Shown here piece by piece: positions 4,450-64,000 of a DNA stretch of 64,000 nt. The stretch's first letter is position 1, and each line of letters begins with the position of its first letter. The position numbers were made by a program, and so were the translations under genes. The DNA lies in sequence record LC680885.1; one strand, written 5' to 3'. The stretch comes from Staphylococcus phage S6. The notes below the pieces were generated by a model, which had not been told where the DNA came from, searched no databases, and was given only the letters and a program-made list of their open reading frames with translations.

Positions 4450-5589
4450 TTACCGATTTAATTCTCCTTCAAATAAATAATCTATATTAATGTAAGTTCT
4501 TTCAAATATTTCTTCATTAAGTCTTTTAATCTCATTGGGATCATTAAAATCTATTATTTGAGAAGATAATATATTTTGAATTTTACTTCCATCAATTTCA
4601 TCAACTATATGAGGATGATTGAATAGTTTAAACCTTTTAATTAGTTCTTCTAACTTTTCTTCTTTTAATTCATTTTCAAATAGCTTTCTTAAAGATGATT
4701 CATTATTATATTCTTTTAGAGGAGATAATTTTAAATCAGATATCATTTTATCTAATAATTTTACAGTTGATACTGGACCATAGCTTGGTATTGATTTGTA
4801 TTCTTGATCTTTATGTTCCATAAATAAGTTATATAAGTCTAATATATTATAATCTATATTAACAAAATCGTTAATATCTTTTTTAGTACTAGAGCTAAAT
4901 AATTCGTCTTTAATATTCTCTTTAGTTATTACTTTACTCTTTTCTGATCCACGTAGTTCTAATAGTAATAATCTATCTTTATATTTTAATAACTGTCTAT
5001 ATATTTTATCGTTACTAACTATTAATGAATAATCATCATCATTTTCAATATTAGTTTTAGATAATATATAATAAGGTAATATAGTTGGTTCTATTTTATA
5101 AGTGTCTATAAAATATGCGTTAGGTATATATTTAACTATAGTTTTAACTAATTCTAAAGTTGATTTAATAGTCTTATTAGTATCTCTATAAGTTATATTG
5201 TCTTTATCCATCTTTTTATAATATTCTTTCTTATACCCTTCATCAATATTAGTATGATATATTGACTCTTTATCTGAATAGAATAGGAAGAATCTACTAT
5301 GCATATTTAATCTACTAGCGAAGAAATGTCTATAATGTCCTATTATATTAACTAATTCAACAACTAAATTCAATCTATCTTTAGTTTTTACATGTGTAAA
5401 ATTTTCAGCTATTTGAGGTGAATACAATTGTTTAATAACTGAATTTAAATCTACATATATAGTTACATTATCATTTTTAGTATTACTACCAAACCTACCT
5501 CCTTCTACATAAGGTCTAACTAACTCAGTCATTTTGTTATAATTTAATTTTTTAGAGTTTATTATACGTTCTATTATACTAATATCCAT
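4450..5589 (-). CDS. hypothetical protein
   Basis: Minus-strand ORF. The likely start is the second Met (MDISIIERI...), preceded by AGGATGTGgaatacatATG. The track start at 5610 has no SD. Confidence 0.5.
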   Translation of the reverse strand: MDISIIERIINSKKLNYNKMTELVRPYVEGGRFGSNTKNDNVTIYVDLNSVIKQLYSPQIAENFTHVKTKDRLNLVVELVNIIGHYRHFFASRLNMHSRFFLFYSDKESIYHTNIDEGYKKEYYKKMDKDNITYRDTNKTIKSTLELVKTIVKYIPNAYFIDTYKIEPTILPYYILSKTNIENDDDYSLIVSNDKIYRQLLKYKDRLLLLELRGSEKSKVITKENIKDELFSSSTKKDINDFVNIDYNILDLYNLFMEHKDQEYKSIPSYGPVSTVKLLDKMISDLKLSPLKEYNNESSLRKLFENELKEEKLEELIKRFKLFNHPHIVDEIDGSKIQNILSSQIIDFNDPNEIKRLNEEIFERTYINIDYLFEGELNR

Positions 5590-5716
5590 ATGTATTCCAC
5601 ATCCTTTCATTGTTATAATATATAATTATATATTAATTCGTAATTTTATAAAAATTGATATTACCTAGTAACATTCACTTATAATAATAAGTATCGGGAA
5701 GTCGGTGAATTAAAAA

Positions 5717-6991
5717 TTGATAGAAAGCTTGATTACTAAAAAAATATTTAATATAAAATTAATAGCATTGTATTCAGATGGAACTACTGATGATTTATCT
5801 CAATTTATTAAGAGATCTAGAATAGAAATGAACTTCCAAGAATATATTATGCCATACTATAGATTTATATTAAGATTGCCTAAAGAGACTATAATTAAGA
5901 TTAATAAAGATAGAGATAAAGTAGTATTTTCTTTTTCTTCAGATATGATTACTACTGATGCTGAAAGTGAAAGTTTATCTGTTCCTTTTTATGAAGAAAT
6001 AATATTAAAACCATTAATGGATTTAAGTAATCCAGTTAATTATGATGATAGAGTAACTAGAACTGATGAAGATCAAAAACATTTATTTGATAGATATGAA
6101 CTAGTTGCTATATCTGAAGAAACGTTGAAAACTAATAAACCTATAGTTTCAGGTATCTATAATAACTGTACTGTCAGTGAAGTAGTCACTGATCTATTAA
6201 GTAATTTAAAAAATAGAGAGATATACTTACACGAGATAGATAATAACAAAATATATGAACAGATTATCTTACTTCCTGCAAACGTATATGATAATATAAA
6301 ATTTATTGATGACGTATACGGTATATATAATAGGGAAATTAAGATGTTTAACCATGAAACAGGATTAAATATTTTACCAATGTCTGGATTTGATCCTAAT
6401 GAGATAGGTAAAGTTAAAGTAGAAATAAGATTTCCATCAAATCAAACTGATGAAGAAATCATAGAAGGATCTTACGAACAAATATCTGAAGAGGATGACT
6501 TAGTTAGAAATAAAAATATAGTAACAAGAATTAATAATGTATCTTTAGTAGATAATACAAGATTATTTAATGAATTAATTGGTTCAGAAATTAATTTATT
6601 TGGAATGGATAATGAGACAGAATACACTAAATTAAATACATATCGTAGAGATATGGAAGATAGAAATGGACCTATTAATAAAGTTAAAGTATATGACGAT
6701 ATTTATGATAATCCTTATAGTTTAGAAAAAGAATTTAATAACAGTAAAGATATAATATTAAAGATACAGTTAAATGATATTGATTTGACTATGGAAGATA
6801 CTTTCAAGCAATTTGATATAGAGTTCTTTAATGAATATTATAAACACTATAACGGTTTTTATGAATTATTATCTATTAATCAAGAATATAAAAATGCAAG
6901 TAAAGCTTTAGTCTTATCAAACTATGTTACATTAAGAAAGATAACTGATCATACATTTATTAAGAATGATAAAAATAATCCCAATACCTAA
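5717..6991 (+). CDS. hypothetical protein (424 aa)
   Basis: ORF with a TTG start 8 nt after GTCGGTGAA. No recognisable motif. Confidence 0.5.
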   Translation: MIESLITKKIFNIKLIALYSDGTTDDLSQFIKRSRIEMNFQEYIMPYYRFILRLPKETIIKINKDRDKVVFSFSSDMITTDAESESLSVPFYEEIILKPLMDLSNPVNYDDRVTRTDEDQKHLFDRYELVAISEETLKTNKPIVSGIYNNCTVSEVVTDLLSNLKNREIYLHEIDNNKIYEQIILLPANVYDNIKFIDDVYGIYNREIKMFNHETGLNILPMSGFDPNEIGKVKVEIRFPSNQTDEEIIEGSYEQISEEDDLVRNKNIVTRINNVSLVDNTRLFNELIGSEINLFGMDNETEYTKLNTYRRDMEDRNGPINKVKVYDDIYDNPYSLEKEFNNSKDIILKIQLNDIDLTMEDTFKQFDIEFFNEYYKHYNGFYELLSINQEYKNASKALVLSNYVTLRKITDHTFIKNDKNNPNT

Positions 6992-56687: not shown

Positions 56688-57059
56688 ATGGGCGATATTA
56701 GTAAAGACAATTTATATATTTTTAGAGCAAAATGTGAAAGAGTAGTTGATGGTGACACTATCGATGTCATTATTGATTTCGGTTTTGATGTGAGTGCAAA
56801 AAGAAGAGTAAGAATTCTTGATGTAGATACTCCAGAAAGAGGACAAGATAATTTTAAAGAAGCAACTGAATTTGTTAAAGAACGTGTGGAAGGTAAAGAG
56901 TTACTATTACAAACTTACAAATCTGATGTTTTTGGAAGATACCTTGCTAGAATTTGGTATAATAATGAAGATACTGGTAAAGTATGTTTAAATGATGAAT
57001 TATTAATGTCTGATCTGTTAAAACCAAATTCAAAATGGAATAATATGAACAATATTTAA
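56688..57059 (+). CDS. thermonuclease (staphylococcal nuclease / SNase-fold)
   Basis: VVDGDTIDV and RVRILDVDTPE match the SNase DGDT and R.RL.GID.PE motifs. FGRYLARIWYNNEDTGKVCLNDELL matches the YGR.LAY...G..VNE.LV block. Confidence 0.72.
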   Translation: MGDISKDNLYIFRAKCERVVDGDTIDVIIDFGFDVSAKRRVRILDVDTPERGQDNFKEATEFVKERVEGKELLLQTYKSDVFGRYLARIWYNNEDTGKVCLNDELLMSDLLKPNSKWNNMNNI

Positions 57060-58062: not shown

Positions 58063-61000
58063 ATGGCAGAAGTTTTTAATAAAGATTTAAAAGAAATAGT
58101 TCACGATAATATGATGATATATTTTAATGAAATTAACACTAACCGTCAAATACCAGATATTAGAGATGGTTTGAAACCTATTCAAAGAAAAATACTTTAT
58201 ATTATGTATAAAAATGGTTATAGATCTGATAAGAAATTTGCTAAATCAGCTAGAATAGCTGGTGACACTACTATATTACACCCACATAGTAATGATGGTA
58301 TTTATGATTCTGCAGTTAATATGGTTACACCGTTTTCTATGAACCAACCATTAATTGAAGGACATGGTGCATTTGGTTCTATTACAGGAGCTTCAGCAGC
58401 CGCTTCACGTTATTGTTTAACTGGAGAACATATAGTTGATATGAGTAATGGAGAACTTGTAAGAATTAAAGATATAGTACCTCATAGTGAATTAGACAGT
58501 GATAATAAAATTGATAAAGTTGTCATGGACTTTAGACGTAAACCAGTTAAAGCAATTAAATTCTTTAATTCAGGTAAACATAATGTAATGGAATTAAACA
58601 CTAATGCAGGCAAAACTATTAAAGCCACACCAAATCATCCTTTATTAACTGTAATCAAACACCCAACAAAAGGATTAGATTTCAAATGGAAAACAATGGA
58701 TGAAATTAAAGAAGGAGATTATTTAATCAACAGAACTATGATTAAAAATGATCTCAAAGATTTTAGAAGTAAAAATCTTAATGAAAATGAAAAAGAAAGC
58801 TTTAAAAAATGGGGAGAAATTCTTTCTAATAAATATTTTAATAGAACTTTAGATCCTGAATATGGAGTATTAATGAGAAGTATTGAAACTGAAAAGAGTC
58901 TTCCTAATAAAGTATTAGAAGCTTGTTTAGGTTATAAAAGAGAATTCTTATTAGAGTTATTTAAACAAGATGGATTTATTGTAGATAATATTGGTTTAGT
59001 TATCGAAAGTCATAGTAAAAGATTCTTGCAAGAAATAGCTACTTTATTATCTCAATTTGGTATTTATTCTGTGATATCATTATTCAGTGATAGTGATTAT
59101 AGATTACAAATTCAAGATATTCACTCACTTAAGAATTTATCTAAACACTTAATTAAAGATGATGATTTATTTAAAGATAAAATTGATGAAATTATTGATA
59201 TGTATAGAAATTTAGAAAGTAATAATCCATATCAAGTTATTCCTTATTTAGATGAAGTATTAGATGAGAGAAAAATGACTTCTTATCTATATCCAGAGTT
59301 ATTTAATACTAGAAAGAATTTCTTAAATAACTTTAATTTACTTGAAGAAGAATACGGTATTGAAATTGAAGAAAGAGATCATTTAATGTTATTTATCTCT
59401 AAATACTTAGATAACTATACTTATTTTGAACAAGTAGAAAGTATTGAAGAGTTGGAAGAAGAGGAAGTAGTTTATTCTATTAAAGTTGATACAGATGATC
59501 ATTCATTTATGTCTGAAGGATTTATTCATCATAATACAGAAATGAGATTAAATAAATTCTCAGAAAGAAATTTATTAGATAATATCAATGATAATGCAGT
59601 TAATATGGTTAAGAACTTTGATGGATCAATGTTAGAACCTTTAGTGTTACCTTCTAAATTACCTTATGTATTAGTTAATGGTTCATTTGGTATTGGTGGT
59701 GGAGGACATAGATCTGATTTGCCACCACATTCTACTGAAGATGTAATTAATATTACTATTGACAGAATTAAAAATCCTAATAAGAAATTAAAAACACTTA
59801 TTAAAGATAATAAATTTAAACCACAATTTCCTTATGGTGGAGAAGCATTTTGTGATGATTTAGAGAAATGTTATCGTACAGGTAAAGGTTCTATGTTATT
59901 AAGATCTGTAGTTGAAAAAGATGAAAGTAAAATGACTCTTACAATTAAAGAAATTCCTTATAACGTTACTTTGACTAGGGTTAAAGAAGCTATCAGAGAA
60001 GCACATAAAGAGGAACAATTAGATGGTCTTAAAAATATTAGTGACGGAACTCAAAACGGAGATGTTCGTTTAATTCTTCAATATACAAAATCTTCTGACT
60101 TAGATTTAGCATTAAATCAATTGTATAAAGTTAAGACAATTACTTCTAGAGTTAACTTTGATGTTAAATTAGTAGATAATAATAAGCTAGTGGAAACTAA
60201 TTTATTAGGTATTATTGATAGATGGATTGAATTTAGACAATCAACTGTGAAACGTTTTAAATCATTTAAAATTAAAGATTTAAGAAGTCGTATTCATATT
60301 ATTGAAGGTCTATTAGTTGTATTAGATTCTAAGAATATCGATGAATTAATTAAAATAGTTAAATCTGGTAAAGGTAAAGAAGATATTATTGATGTAGTTA
60401 GTAAGAAATTTGGTATATCTCATGCACAAGCTTCTTATGTAGCTGAAATGAAACTATATACAATTAATAATCTTGAAATCAACAAATTGGTTGAAGAAAA
60501 GAAAGAAAAAGAAAAGATTGTTAATGAAGAAATGGTATACATGAAAGATGTAAGTAAACTGAATGATCTTATTATTAATGAAATGAAAGAAATTAAGAAA
60601 GATAAAAATACACTTAAACCATCTAGATTAACTAAGTACTCTGATATTGATTTTAAAAATGATAATAAAGAATTATTAATTAAAGATGAAGATTTCATGT
60701 GTATTATTACTAGACAAAATAAGATTAAGAAAGTTAAAGATGAAATTAGTAAACCTCAAAAGAGAAATGGTAAAGGTATCTCTATTGGTAAATTATCAGA
60801 TGGTGATATTCCATTAAACATCTTTAATGCTAATAGTAAAGATAACTTATTCTTAATTACTGATACAGGAAAAATATTCTATGATAAAGTTTATGAATTC
60901 CCTGAAATTAAATCATTGAATAACTTTGGTAAAGATATTAGTAGATTTGTTAAGAATGAAAAGATTATTAAAGCATTTACTTTAACTGATGAAGAATTTA

Positions 61001-61617
61001 AAGATCCAGATACAGCTTTTGTAGTAACAACAGCTTTGAATAAAACTAAAATGGTTATGGTTGAAGAAATTAAAAAATCTGGTGTAATTCTTATGAAATT
61101 AAATGAAGATGATAAAGTTATCAATGTTCATAATGTACATTCTAAGAAACCATTTAATTTAATAGCTATATCTGAAAAAGGTAATGCTATTAGATTCTCA
61201 AGTGAATTAATTCCAGTTCAAAATAGAAATACAATTGGTTCTTCTATATTCAGTAATACAACTATTAATAAAGATAATAAAGTTGCTTCAACTGTAGTTG
61301 ATTCTGGACAAGATAAGATGTTAATAGTAACTCATAAAGGTTTAGCTAAACAAATTATGACTGAAGACATTCCAGTTAAATCTAGAATGATTAAAGGTGT
61401 AATTGCAGCTAAATTTAAAAATGAAAAAGATTCTGTAATGTATATTAGTATGATAGATGATGAAGAAGATAATCTATTATTAGTTACTGAAAACAAAACT
61501 ATCAATGTACCTTTAAAAGAAATCAATACGTATAAAAGAACAACTTATGGTAATCCAGTAATGAAACTTAATGATAACGAATTCTGTATAGATTCTTCTA
61601 TCATTAAACATAATTAG
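58063..61617 (+). CDS. type IIA DNA topoisomerase DNA-cleavage subunit (GyrA/ParC-like; T4 gp52 equivalent) interrupted by an intein
   Basis: The extein reads IRDGLKPIQRKILYIMY (GyrA RDGLKPVQRRILY) ... GAFGSITGASAAASRY | TEMRLNKF, matching the GyrA AAMRYTEARL block whose Y is the catalytic tyrosine. The intein lies between RY and TE. Confidence 0.85.
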   Translation: MAEVFNKDLKEIVHDNMMIYFNEINTNRQIPDIRDGLKPIQRKILYIMYKNGYRSDKKFAKSARIAGDTTILHPHSNDGIYDSAVNMVTPFSMNQPLIEGHGAFGSITGASAAASRYCLTGEHIVDMSNGELVRIKDIVPHSELDSDNKIDKVVMDFRRKPVKAIKFFNSGKHNVMELNTNAGKTIKATPNHPLLTVIKHPTKGLDFKWKTMDEIKEGDYLINRTMIKNDLKDFRSKNLNENEKESFKKWGEILSNKYFNRTLDPEYGVLMRSIETEKSLPNKVLEACLGYKREFLLELFKQDGFIVDNIGLVIESHSKRFLQEIATLLSQFGIYSVISLFSDSDYRLQIQDIHSLKNLSKHLIKDDDLFKDKIDEIIDMYRNLESNNPYQVIPYLDEVLDERKMTSYLYPELFNTRKNFLNNFNLLEEEYGIEIEERDHLMLFISKYLDNYTYFEQVESIEELEEEEVVYSIKVDTDDHSFMSEGFIHHNTEMRLNKFSERNLLDNINDNAVNMVKNFDGSMLEPLVLPSKLPYVLVNGSFGIGGGGHRSDLPPHSTEDVINITIDRIKNPNKKLKTLIKDNKFKPQFPYGGEAFCDDLEKCYRTGKGSMLLRSVVEKDESKMTLTIKEIPYNVTLTRVKEAIREAHKEEQLDGLKNISDGTQNGDVRLILQYTKSSDLDLALNQLYKVKTITSRVNFDVKLVDNNKLVETNLLGIIDRWIEFRQSTVKRFKSFKIKDLRSRIHIIEGLLVVLDSKNIDELIKIVKSGKGKEDIIDVVSKKFGISHAQASYVAEMKLYTINNLEINKLVEEKKEKEKIVNEEMVYMKDVSKLNDLIINEMKEIKKDKNTLKPSRLTKYSDIDFKNDNKELLIKDEDFMCIITRQNKIKKVKDEISKPQKRNGKGISIGKLSDGDIPLNIFNANSKDNLFLITDTGKIFYDKVYEFPEIKSLNNFGKDISRFVKNEKIIKAFTLTDEEFKDPDTAFVVTTALNKTKMVMVEEIKKSGVILMKLNEDDKVINVHNVHSKKPFNLIAISEKGNAIRFSSELIPVQNRNTIGSSIFSNTTINKDNKVASTVVDSGQDKMLIVTHKGLAKQIMTEDIPVKSRMIKGVIAAKFKNEKDSVMYISMIDDEEDNLLLVTENKTINVPLKEINTYKRTTYGNPVMKLNDNEFCIDSSIIKHN
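58414..59535 (+). mobile_element. intein (374 aa) with a LAGLIDADG-type homing endonuclease domain, inserted directly after the catalytic Tyr codon of the GyrA-like gene
   Basis: Begins with Cys (CLTGEHIVDM) and ends ...GFIHHN, followed by Thr as the +1 extein residue. Internal LAGLIDADG-like blocks LLELFKQDGFIV and FLQEIATLLSQFGIYS. Removing it restores the contiguous AAASRYTEMRL. Confidence 0.75.
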
Positions 61618-61933: not shown

Positions 61934-63670
61934 TTGGAAAAGAAATATATTAGATGTAATTCATGTAGTTCAGTACAAGAATATAGTGAAGATATTACAT
62001 CTTGTTCGGAATGTAGTTCTGAAAATATTTCAGTCATTAAATCTCCTGTTGATTTAGTTAATGAAGCTGAAGTATTAGTTACAGAATCTGAAATGGATTT
62101 CTTATTAGACTATAATGATTATCAAGAATACGATAAAAAAGGCAAATCTTGTTGGTTTGATATATATTTAATTAAGTATCCTAGAGATAATACTCAAATT
62201 AAACATATTGTATTACAGAATCAAAAAGGAAGAGAAGAAGATTTATTAATTGATTACGCTGGAGACGATAAAGGTGGTAATCCTATTGTAATAAATGATA
62301 CAGGAAGTATTAAGACTGTATTAAATGATGTTGATACTTTATCTGAAGTTGTTAAAGTTAGATTCTTAAGTAAAGAATCAACTAAGAGAAGAGGTAAAGA
62401 AGATTTTGGTTTAAATTCAGAAGAATACGTATCATTTAATAAAGATAAATATAATTTTTATAATGATGCTAAATTAAGAACTTTAGTTAAAGTTTTAGAA
62501 TCAATGGGCAACACATTATTCTTAGATAGCAAAAGTGATATTGTATGGAATAAAATATTCACTGAACACAATGTACTTAATTCACCTTTATTTACTTATC
62601 AAGAAGTAATGGATTACAATGAGACTAATCTTTATAAAGAATATGGAGATTATGAATTTGAAGAAAGATTAGAAGACGTTATATACGAATATCAATTAGA
62701 AAATGAAATTGGTGTATTTAATTTCTTATATAATAAAAATAAAGGTAATAAGCCTAAATTTACTGAAGATATGGAAGAAGTATATGCTACAGTAACTCCA
62801 TCTATGTTGTTATCTGATGATTTTAAAATGTCAGAAGATCACGGTAGAATTAATCCGAATGTATTGTCTTTATTATACTTTAAAATATTAGAAAAGAAAT
62901 TAGGTATTAGATCAATTGAATTAGTAACATATGTAAATTCTAATAGAGATGACATAATTCTATTCCCTGTTTCTTATAACGGTCAAGGATATGTATTAGC
63001 TGACTTTAAATTAGACAGTCCTATAGTTTTTAAAAATATGGATGATGTTAATAAATATTGTGCATACCAATTTGGATATGATCAAGAAAATGAAGAAAAT
63101 GAAAATATATTTAAATTCTCAGTTAAAGAAGTACCTGCTGAATTTAATTTCCAAAAAGCTATTTCAAGTAATATGGAAATAATTGAAAGATTCTTTATGA
63201 AATTCAATGAGAATACTTTAAATGAAACTGTATTAGAACCAGAATCAATTTTAAATGAAGCTGTTGGAGATAATAAAAAGAAACGTCAAGAAATACAAAA
63301 TAAAATATTAGACGTTATTTCTTCATTAGACAAAGATCAATCTAATATGAATAAATATAAAACATTCTTTGATGAAATGAATGATGAAGAATTCATGAGA
63401 TATATTAAGAGATTTGTTAATAGTAATGAAAACTTCTACATTGAAGTATTACCTAATAAATCTGAAGCTGGATTTAAAGAAGTTGAAGAAGCTTTAAACA
63501 AACTTGATGTACCTATGAATGAATTTGTTTATTATCGACATGATGGAAATAAAGATGATCCTTTAAGAACTAGATATAAAGTTCCAGTAGGGTATTTGCA
63601 TGTAAAACGTCTACGTGTGAAACGTTACACAAGAAAGACAATGAAGATTGTTGAGGATTGTGTGGCATAA
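61934..63670 (+). CDS. hypothetical protein with an N-terminal CxxC...CxxC zinc ribbon (578 aa)
   Basis: CNSCSSVQEYSEDITSCSECSS at residues 8-29. The rest is unrecognised. Confidence 0.5.
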   Translation: MEKKYIRCNSCSSVQEYSEDITSCSECSSENISVIKSPVDLVNEAEVLVTESEMDFLLDYNDYQEYDKKGKSCWFDIYLIKYPRDNTQIKHIVLQNQKGREEDLLIDYAGDDKGGNPIVINDTGSIKTVLNDVDTLSEVVKVRFLSKESTKRRGKEDFGLNSEEYVSFNKDKYNFYNDAKLRTLVKVLESMGNTLFLDSKSDIVWNKIFTEHNVLNSPLFTYQEVMDYNETNLYKEYGDYEFEERLEDVIYEYQLENEIGVFNFLYNKNKGNKPKFTEDMEEVYATVTPSMLLSDDFKMSEDHGRINPNVLSLLYFKILEKKLGIRSIELVTYVNSNRDDIILFPVSYNGQGYVLADFKLDSPIVFKNMDDVNKYCAYQFGYDQENEENENIFKFSVKEVPAEFNFQKAISSNMEIIERFFMKFNENTLNETVLEPESILNEAVGDNKKKRQEIQNKILDVISSLDKDQSNMNKYKTFFDEMNDEEFMRYIKRFVNSNENFYIEVLPNKSEAGFKEVEEALNKLDVPMNEFVYYRHDGNKDDPLRTRYKVPVGYLHVKRLRVKRYTRKTMKIVEDCVA

Positions 63671-64000
63671 TAAATTATGCTAACTTTTTAGTTGAATAAG
63701 CAGTATCTACCTATAAAGATACGATATGCTATTAATAATACTCCCGCATGTATAAAAAGTGATTTTTATATGTGAAGCCGGGTGAAGACACTATATTTTA
63801 ATTATAGTGGTTAGGGAAATGTATATGGTTAGGAACACAAACTATTTATGAATGTCCTTTATATATTAGTATTAAATGTAGACTTAATACTATGATTTAA
63901 TTGATAGGTTATTAAATCTCTTAACGGAATATAAAGGGAACAGATAGAACCTAAGTACATTTATTTACCTAGACTAAAAGGAACGTTTGATATCTCATAA

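Follow-up and report, generated by a model that had tools for sequence, protein, structure and literature searches.

An intein at the catalytic tyrosine of a Staphylococcus phage gyrase, with a probable remnant of a LAGLIDADG endonuclease

Does the insert that directly follows the catalytic tyrosine of a phage DNA gyrase splice itself out of the protein, and can it still spread as a mobile element? The gyrA gene of Staphylococcus phage S6 (sequence record LC680885.1) raises this question. It lies in the stretch of 64,000 nucleotides that we analyzed, hereafter the window, and its open reading frame (ORF) is interrupted in frame by 374 codons. Mycobacteria have been known since the 1990s to carry inteins at the catalytic tyrosine of GyrA. 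An earlier note on this DNA, made from the letters alone, had read the insert as such an intein, with an intact LAGLIDADG endonuclease and probably still mobile. Our analysis agrees with the first part of that reading and departs from the second: quite probably, a PALS_2/MarsHill-type phage GyrA here carries, at its catalytic-tyrosine site, a class 1 intein that has been vertically inherited, keeps a remnant of its endonuclease and is no longer mobile.

Outside the insert, the gene has the features of a gyrase A subunit. The precursor matched the Pfam family DNA_topoisoIV (PF00521; expectation value, E, of 2e-89) in two stretches broken around the insert, and five stretches of DNA_gyraseA_C (PF03989) make up the β-pinwheel C-terminal domain. 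When the flanks are joined, they give a protein of 810 amino acids (aa), the approximate length that the earlier note had expected, which the sequence confirms. This spliced extein aligned with E. coli GyrA (structure 6rks) at E 1e-94 with no gap across the junction. There, phage gasaaasrY-temrlnkf lies opposite E. coli gdsaaamrY122-teirlaki, which equates Tyr117 of the phage protein with Tyr122 of E. coli and puts the insertion exactly after the active-site tyrosine (AAASRY/TEMRL, with a slash at the splice junction here and below), where the note had placed it. The phage protein has a breakage-reunion domain with the catalytic tyrosine, a β-pinwheel and a GyrA-box-like motif, and its GyrB partner is also encoded in the window. 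It missed the NCBIfam equivalog cutoffs for gyrA (498 versus 902 bits), and we therefore regard it as a divergent phage version.

Judged by its sequence and modelled fold, the insert truly belongs to the class 1 inteins and contains a LAGLIDADG domain derived from an endonuclease. Its boundaries (Table 1) are exactly those given by the earlier note, down to the codons at both junctions: the upstream junction reads ...SITGASAAASRY/CLTGEHIVDM... and the downstream junction ...SEGFIHHN/TEMRLNKF..., and removal of the in-frame insertion leaves a contiguous, conserved GyrA. Searched on its own, the insert matched the Pfam family Intein_splicing (PF14890) at E 2.9e-20 (73.1 bits, cutoff 35.8). Among NCBIfam models, that of the intein N-terminus (TIGR01445, intein_Nterm) scored 35 bits against a cutoff of 24.5, that of the intein C-terminal region (TIGR01443) fell just under its cutoff (13.4 versus 15.6 bits), and the top model overall for the precursor was 'intein-containing DNA gyrase subunit A'. 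The strength of these matches, and of that to a solved mycobacterial intein described below, greatly exceeds what chance would give. Block B has the T-x-x-H pattern as T72-P-N-H75, and the C-terminus ends in H373-N374, followed by Thr.

These residues are conserved both among close relatives and at a distance. We compared ten phage sequences, namely the window and the Staphylococcus jumbo phages PALS_2, DC4, MarsHill, Madawaska, LY01, SA1, Machias, PB50 and AH12. The Cys1, the HN terminus and the Thr at +1, all three pointed out by the earlier note, are kept in 10/10, and block B and the block F/G sequence (VYSIKVDTDDHSFMSEGFIHHN) are nearly invariant. Cys1, H75, P76, H363, H373 and N374 were likewise invariant in a nine-sequence alignment of the window intein with eight distant homologues. 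An AlphaFold model based on that alignment had a mean predicted local distance difference test score (pLDDT) of 80.6 and a predicted template modelling score of 0.84, with the splicing segments, residues 1-110 and 335-374, at pLDDT 85-97. A run without an alignment reached a pLDDT of 34 and was discarded; only the alignment-based model was used. Foldseek matched this model to endonuclease-containing inteins (TliVMA, 7qss, at E 1e-15; PI-PfuI; PI-SceI) and, with a target-normalized template modelling (TM) score of 0.80, to 1am2, the GyrA intein of Mycobacterium xenopi (Mxe).

From the intact catalytic residues and the strong purifying selection on the exteins, we infer that the phage GyrA undergoes protein splicing. 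Such selection implies that a functional GyrA is made, for which splicing would have to occur; the conservation of the exteins would make no sense if a 374-aa domain remained wedged beside the catalytic tyrosine.

The earlier note had further proposed that the insert occupies the same site as the mycobacterial GyrA inteins, which the comparison with the Mxe intein bears out. Among solved structures, 1am2 was the best match (E 3.6e-25), and 4oz6 also matched (E 1.1e-23). The alignment to 1am2 consists of two blocks, window intein residues 2-114 and 329-374, that cover both halves of the splicing domain and blocks A, B, F and G, which the note had proposed to check, while the middle is absent from the mycobacterial mini-intein; the block F/G sequence of the window aligns to the Mxe C-terminus VYSLRVDTADHAFITNGFVSHN. 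Similarity to the Mxe intein is modest and limited to these splicing regions. The junction itself was found in a mycobacterial-type GyrA fragment (P0095) with 74% identity to the Mxe intein, in which the sequence is ...GNFGSPGNDPPAAMRY/CVTGDAAV... (PPAAMRY/CVTGD), so mycobacterial GyrA inteins occupy the same position as the phage intein. The two share the site after ...A-x-R-Y, the Cys1, the HN terminus, the Thr at +1 and the fold; they differ in host protein, a bacterial gyrase there and a phage gyrase here.

With phmmer, we searched 1.84 billion cluster representatives exhaustively and obtained 405 matches at E <= 1e-3. The ...RY/C junction was present in about 115 of the best 150 of these 405 representatives, and both junctions (RY/C ... 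HN/TE) could be extracted for 94 of the same best 150. The length distribution of inteins at this site has its peak at about 405-440 aa and tails off through shortened forms to 150 aa, and mini-inteins of 150-200 aa occur there; at 374 aa the window intein falls below the peak. Its length is also intermediate between the 198-aa mini-intein of M. xenopi GyrA, which has no endonuclease, and the 420-aa M. leprae GyrA intein with its endonuclease (sizes from PMC8861304). On the alignments of the splicing regions and the junctions, we regard the phage intein as allelic and homologous to the mycobacterial GyrA inteins and as part of a very large family at that site. The curated cutoff of the NCBIfam model NF038098 (GyrA_w_intein) was missed (533.6 versus 1850 bits). 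This model is of the 'exception' type and covers a single, specific group of bacterial proteins; the phage protein diverges too much to reach the cutoff. A protein homologue search with the intein alone and with the nine-sequence profile found only two near-identical fragments, and a scan of IMG/VR with the extein found no relatives.

We then considered the domain between the two halves of the splicing domain. LAGLIDADG enzymes carry one metal-binding acid per motif, and each half-domain binds one half-site. The earlier note had described two LAGLIDADG-like helices and an intact element; both helices are present in the model, but the first lacks its catalytic acid and its β-sheet, so the description as intact is not supported. 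In an alignment of 63 inteins of this site with lengths of 340-460 aa, the consensus of motif 1 is LGalVSEGy and that of motif 2 FLxxLFEGDGSV. The catalytic column of motif 1 holds Glu in 49/63 and Asp in 2/63, and the window intein has Asn139 there (WGEILS-N-KY). In motif 2 that column is Asp or Glu in 52/63, and the window intein has Asp186 (LFKQ-D-GF). Among the ten phages, position 139 is not conserved, being Asn, Gln or His across three clades and acidic in 0/10; Asp186 is invariant (10/10). The two catalytic columns are separated by 47 aa in the window intein versus 95-107 aa in nearly all members of at least 400 aa. The 63-sequence alignment indicates that about 50 aa are gone from the first half-domain, essentially its β-sheet.

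The profile match and the model point the same way. LAGLIDADG_3 matched the window intein in one stretch (25.9 bits, cutoff 22.5) that covers residues 174-222 and profile positions 2-53 of 82, whereas two control inteins (P0007 and P0009) each gave two stretches at 77-80 bits. In the AlphaFold model, the second half-domain is complete: helix 172-186, strands 188-190 and 194-199, helix 202-213, strands 220-225 and 228-233, and helix 236-246. The first is reduced to a helix (124-141) followed by a disordered segment (140-156), with no strand in residues 142-187, where the pLDDT is low. The LAGLIDADG_3 match is thus found, and the paired catalytic acids and two full half-domains of a double-motif enzyme are not.

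The controls belong to a group of full-length inteins of 405-440 aa at the same site, from metagenomes and genomes, which are 26-36% identical to the window intein and share its plan, a LAGLIDADG domain nested in a HINT domain. In these inteins both catalytic acids are present (SEG and GDG), the catalytic columns lie 95-107 aa apart and LAGLIDADG_3 matches in two strong stretches; in the window intein, SNK stands for SEG, the spacing is 47 aa and the one stretch is weak. With one acid and one half-domain remaining, a double-strand break by the phage intein is not to be expected, and we consider its endonuclease likely inactive. We hold this no more firmly because active inteins with non-canonical LAGLIDADG motifs, such as PI-MleI, have reportedly been described.

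The nearest relative outside the isolate clade, a metagenomic phage-type GyrA of 1173 aa with a 364-aa intein (P0003), represents a later stage of decay. Its extein is 69% identical to that of the window, its site is the same and its intein is similarly shortened, but that intein shares just 39% identity, no longer has the motif 2 Asp and draws no LAGLIDADG match in Pfam. These losses suggest that decay set in before the clade diverged.

To place the element in the history of these phages, we compared it with its host gene. The gyrA gene is 99.5% identical to that of PALS_2 and 83-98% identical to those of the other eight phages. The intein is present in 9/9 related phage genomes, and no intein-free allele was found in the ten known phages of the clade; the nearest intein-less homologue among the matches listed, from a tblastn search of a phage collection, was in Listeria phage LPJP1, at 45% identity, and phage AR9, which has introns in its gyrA, was not among the matches listed. 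Intein protein identity is 97.9-99.5% to PALS_2, DC4, MarsHill and Madawaska and 78% to Machias. Base composition does not set the insert apart (GC content 25.0% in the intein, 25.9% in the extein, 24.8% in the window), and synonymous divergence (dS) is alike in intein and exteins. Neighbour-joining trees of intein and extein, rooted with P0003, have an identical clade order, with bootstrap support of 100% in the extein tree and 78% in the intein tree.

At the protein level, the intein evolves about three times as fast as the extein. The ratio of nonsynonymous to synonymous divergence (dN/dS) is 0.03-0.16 for the exteins and 0.18-0.27 for intein residues 111-334, with bootstrap upper bounds of at most 0.42; it is 0.09-0.25 for the surviving half-domain. 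A 23-residue loop at the deletion scar is the sole region with a dN/dS interval that includes 1. By these estimates, the remnant domain is under purifying selection, with dN/dS about 0.2.

One phage stood out in this comparison. Between vB_StaM_SA1 (SA1) and the window, the protein distance is 0.47 for the intein and 0.046 for the extein, with the tree topology unchanged. Set against Machias (extein 82-96% and intein 77-80% identical to the window), the SA1 values (95-98% and 61-75%) had led us to suspect horizontal intein exchange between phage clades. We rejected this, since the P0003-rooted trees are congruent and dS is similar; the discordance is attributed to a faster rate on the SA1 intein branch rather than to transfer.

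Taken together, these features suggest the following course. The 1184-aa precursor would be translated with 374 aa between Tyr117 and Thr492. Cys1 would undergo an N-S acyl shift, and the Thr at +1 would then attack the thioester. Cyclization of Asn374, aided by His373, would free the intein, and an O-N shift would yield the 810-aa GyrA with its native ...SRY-TEMR... active site, joined as ASAAASRYTEMR. The spliced subunit would pair with the GyrB whose gene lies 7 kb upstream. The common ancestor of the known Staphylococcus jumbo phages probably had the intein already, and inheritance has presumably been vertical since. Its first half-domain appears to have lost about 50 residues and the catalytic Glu, with the second, including Asp186, left intact; a homing double-strand break is very probably beyond the remnant endonuclease. 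The element would thus be a fixed passenger that no longer moves. It may persist because imprecise loss would wreck the gyrase active site, and the purifying selection on the remnant would most simply reflect the need of the precursor to fold for splicing.

How far could the same data support other explanations? That the insert is a lineage-specific insertion kept in the mature protein, or an artefact of sequencing or assembly, we find barely credible: all intein blocks and junction residues are present, the insert is homologous to a crystallized intein at the same site, the same insert occurs in nine independent genome assemblies, and a 374-aa domain after the catalytic tyrosine is incompatible with an extein dN/dS of 0.03-0.16. 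It is improbable, though less remote, that the element is an intact intein, mobile at present, with a LAGLIDADG endonuclease that brings about its spread by homing into the intein-less gyrA alleles that it cuts, as the earlier note had thought probable. Such an intein would account for a LAGLIDADG_3 score above the Pfam cutoff (25.9 versus 22.5 bits), for the two modelled LAGLIDADG-type helices (124-141 and 172-186), for the conserved Asp186 and for the dN/dS of 0.18-0.27 in the endonuclease-derived region, and Korn et al. (bioRxiv 10.1101/2020.12.14.422802) also use the term homing endonuclease. It would not account for a motif 1 that is non-acidic in 10/10 phages and varies among N, Q and H, nor for the absence of about 50 aa of the first DNA-binding half-domain. 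The Pfam match is weak and partial beside the controls, the clade has no known empty target allele, intein and extein give congruent trees and similar dS, and the closest outgroup, P0003, lacks both the motif 2 Asp and a LAGLIDADG match. The claim that the element is probably still mobile is therefore not supported, in view of Asn139, the 47-aa spacing, the weak LAGLIDADG_3 match, the lack of an empty allele in ten phages and the congruent trees.

Several points nevertheless weigh against the fixed, immobile intein that we favor. The sample comprises ten closely related phages, and unsampled intein-free relatives may exist. Splicing and the inactivity of the nuclease are both what we infer from sequence. 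The M. leprae RecA intein PI-MleI reportedly (Singh et al. 2009) cuts DNA despite having no canonical LAGLIDADG motifs. The AlphaFold alignment held only nine sequences, and the pLDDT is 40-66 exactly in the region that we term degenerate. Asp186 is kept in 10/10 phages, and the second half-domain changes no faster than the splicing domain, as might also be seen if the remnant still nicked or bound DNA. This last point leads to a further alternative, unlikely in our estimate, that the remnant has a retained or new role: as a nickase or DNA-binding domain, in conditional (for example, temperature-dependent) splicing that regulates gyrase, or in a 'collaborative' mobility assisted by an HNH endonuclease. 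The second half-domain and the helical region have a dN/dS (0.09-0.25) as low as that of the HINT domain, Asp186 is invariant, an HNH_3/NUMOD4 ORF (56161..56592) lies upstream of gyrA, and these phages do not grow at 37°C, as stated by Korn et al. A need for folding, with the HINT halves having to meet, explains the purifying selection equally well, however, and nothing observed here connects the intein with temperature or with the HNH gene. Moreover, mini-inteins of 150-200 aa at the same site imply that the domain is dispensable for splicing in principle. In its more specific form, that the domain is kept for a non-homing purpose, either conditional splicing of gyrase, which could contribute to the lack of growth at 37°C, or an excised 44-kDa intein that nicks or binds the phage DNA, which presumably contains uracil, we give this idea only a slim chance; the dN/dS of about 0.2 and the invariance of Asp186 are compatible with it without demanding it.

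Table 1. Positions of the gyrA intein, its host gene and neighbouring features in the window
Feature	Position	Strand	Details
gyrA ORF including intein	58063..61617	+	1184-aa precursor
N-extein, GyrA aa 1-117	58063..58413	+	ends AAASRY; catalytic Tyr117 (TAT) at 58411-58413; alignment to E. coli GyrA and Pfam
Intein, 374 aa, class 1, Cys1 to His373-Asn374	58414..59535	+	Pfam, NCBIfam, PDB 1am2, AlphaFold/Foldseek, MarsHill annotation
Cys1 codon TGT	58414-58416	+	directly 3' of Tyr117 TAT
HINT domain, N-terminal half, intein aa 1-110	58414..58743	+	block A (Cys1), block B (T72-P-N-H75); pLDDT 85-97
Degenerate LAGLIDADG motif 1 helix, intein aa 124-141	58783..58836	+	...WGEILSNKY...; Asn139 (58828-58830) in catalytic-Glu column
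Single complete half-domain, intein aa 165-246	58906..59151	+	alpha-beta-beta-alpha-beta-beta-alpha; motif 2 FLLELFKQDGF, Asp186 at 58969-58971
HINT domain, C-terminal part, intein aa 335-374	59416..59535	+	blocks F and G, VYSIKVDTDDHSFMSEGFIHHN; pLDDT 90-95
His373-Asn374	59530-59535	+	Asn374 codon AAT at 59533-59535, then Thr ACA
C-extein, GyrA aa 492-1184 and stop	59536..61617	+	opens with Thr+1 (ACA, 59536-59538); Pfam and alignment
GyrA-box-like QKRNGKG within C-extein	60757-60777	+	opposite E. coli QRRGGKG (6rks alignment)
gyrB, 760 aa, uninterrupted	49056..51338	+	Pfam HATPase_c, DNA_gyraseB (5e-38), Toprim, DNA_gyraseB_C
HNH_3/NUMOD4 homing-endonuclease-like ORF, free-standing, weaker match	47292..48635	+	just upstream of gyrB
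Metallo-beta-lactamase-fold ORF	54744..55571	+	sub-threshold Apyc1 (anti-Pycsar) match, 37.4 bits versus cutoff 50
HNH_3/NUMOD4 homing-endonuclease-like ORF, free-standing	56161..56592	+	E 3.4e-7; 1.47 kb upstream of gyrA
Small staphylococcal-nuclease (SNase) homologue	56688..57059	+	Pfam E 1.4e-8; between HNH gene and gyrA
Group II intron domains D1-D4 match, RF02004	63679..63821	+	Rfam gathering level, 44.5 bits, E 2.7e-6; element cut off by the window end at 64000

The earlier note had called this replication enzyme essential, an unproven label; the gyrA gene of phage LY01 (OR836606) holds a second interruption besides the intein. A 1998-bp insertion (4744..6741) lies between codons 914 and 915, just past the GyrA box, at a point that corresponds to 60804/60805 of the window. 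It encodes a 401-aa TnpB (OrfB_IS605, E 8.6e-18; Cas12f1-like TNB, E 7e-19) and has TTTGTTAAC at both ends. The LY01 genome matches this element at six sites. In Machias, a single copy with 88.8% identity carries the annotation transposase; the window contains no copy. We also tried the LY01 insertion as an intron or IStron and rejected this, as Rfam returned nothing at E <= 1. Either the element is somehow removed in LY01, or a GyrA separated from its C-terminal domain is enough. The insertion may represent a TnpB element that is multiplying within a jumbo phage, here interrupting a gene presumed essential.

Other interruptions also mark this part of the genome. The gyrB gene is intact in the window, whereas Korn et al. 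list gyrase B among the intron-disrupted genes of MarsHill-like phages; intron content thus appears to differ among close relatives. Near the end of the window, the RF02004 match begins 9 nt past the stop of an ORF (61934..63670, + strand) whose counterpart in sister phages is annotated in GenBank as the N-terminal exon of a viral RNA polymerase beta subunit, so what interrupts that gene seems to be a group II intron. For DC4, Rfam is reported to have found no introns (PMC10638138). The homologue in MarsHill of the metallo-β-lactamase-fold ORF is annotated as RNase Z-like.

The intein itself was already known, as GenBank annotation and two papers on sister phages record it. In GenBank, MarsHill, Madawaska and Machias carry a mat_peptide labelled 'intein', with in-gene offsets in MarsHill that equal those of the window, and the PB50 product is labelled 'intein-containing DNA gyrase subunit A'. 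Korn et al. describe in MarsHill gp228 an intein 'between residues Y117 and T492' with a LAGLIDADG domain, and the same intein is stated for DC4 and PALS_2 in the DC4 paper (PMC10638138). The inteins of PALS_2/MarsHill-type phages are the orthologous element, with the same Y117/T492 boundaries and no substantive difference from that of the window. In the available portions of these published accounts, the LAGLIDADG domain is termed a homing endonuclease, and neither its degeneracy nor the catalytic-tyrosine site in common with mycobacterial GyrA is mentioned.

With the boundaries in GenBank and in print for sister phages, little here is new, and our additions are three and modest: the allelism and homology of the phage intein to the mycobacterial GyrA inteins, the apparently half-decayed endonuclease in a fixed element, and the purifying selection on the remnant. 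In annotating these genes, one should not take the label 'LAGLIDADG homing endonuclease' as evidence of activity. For the family, the phage intein would exemplify a late, post-fixation stage of the homing cycle rather than an active invader.

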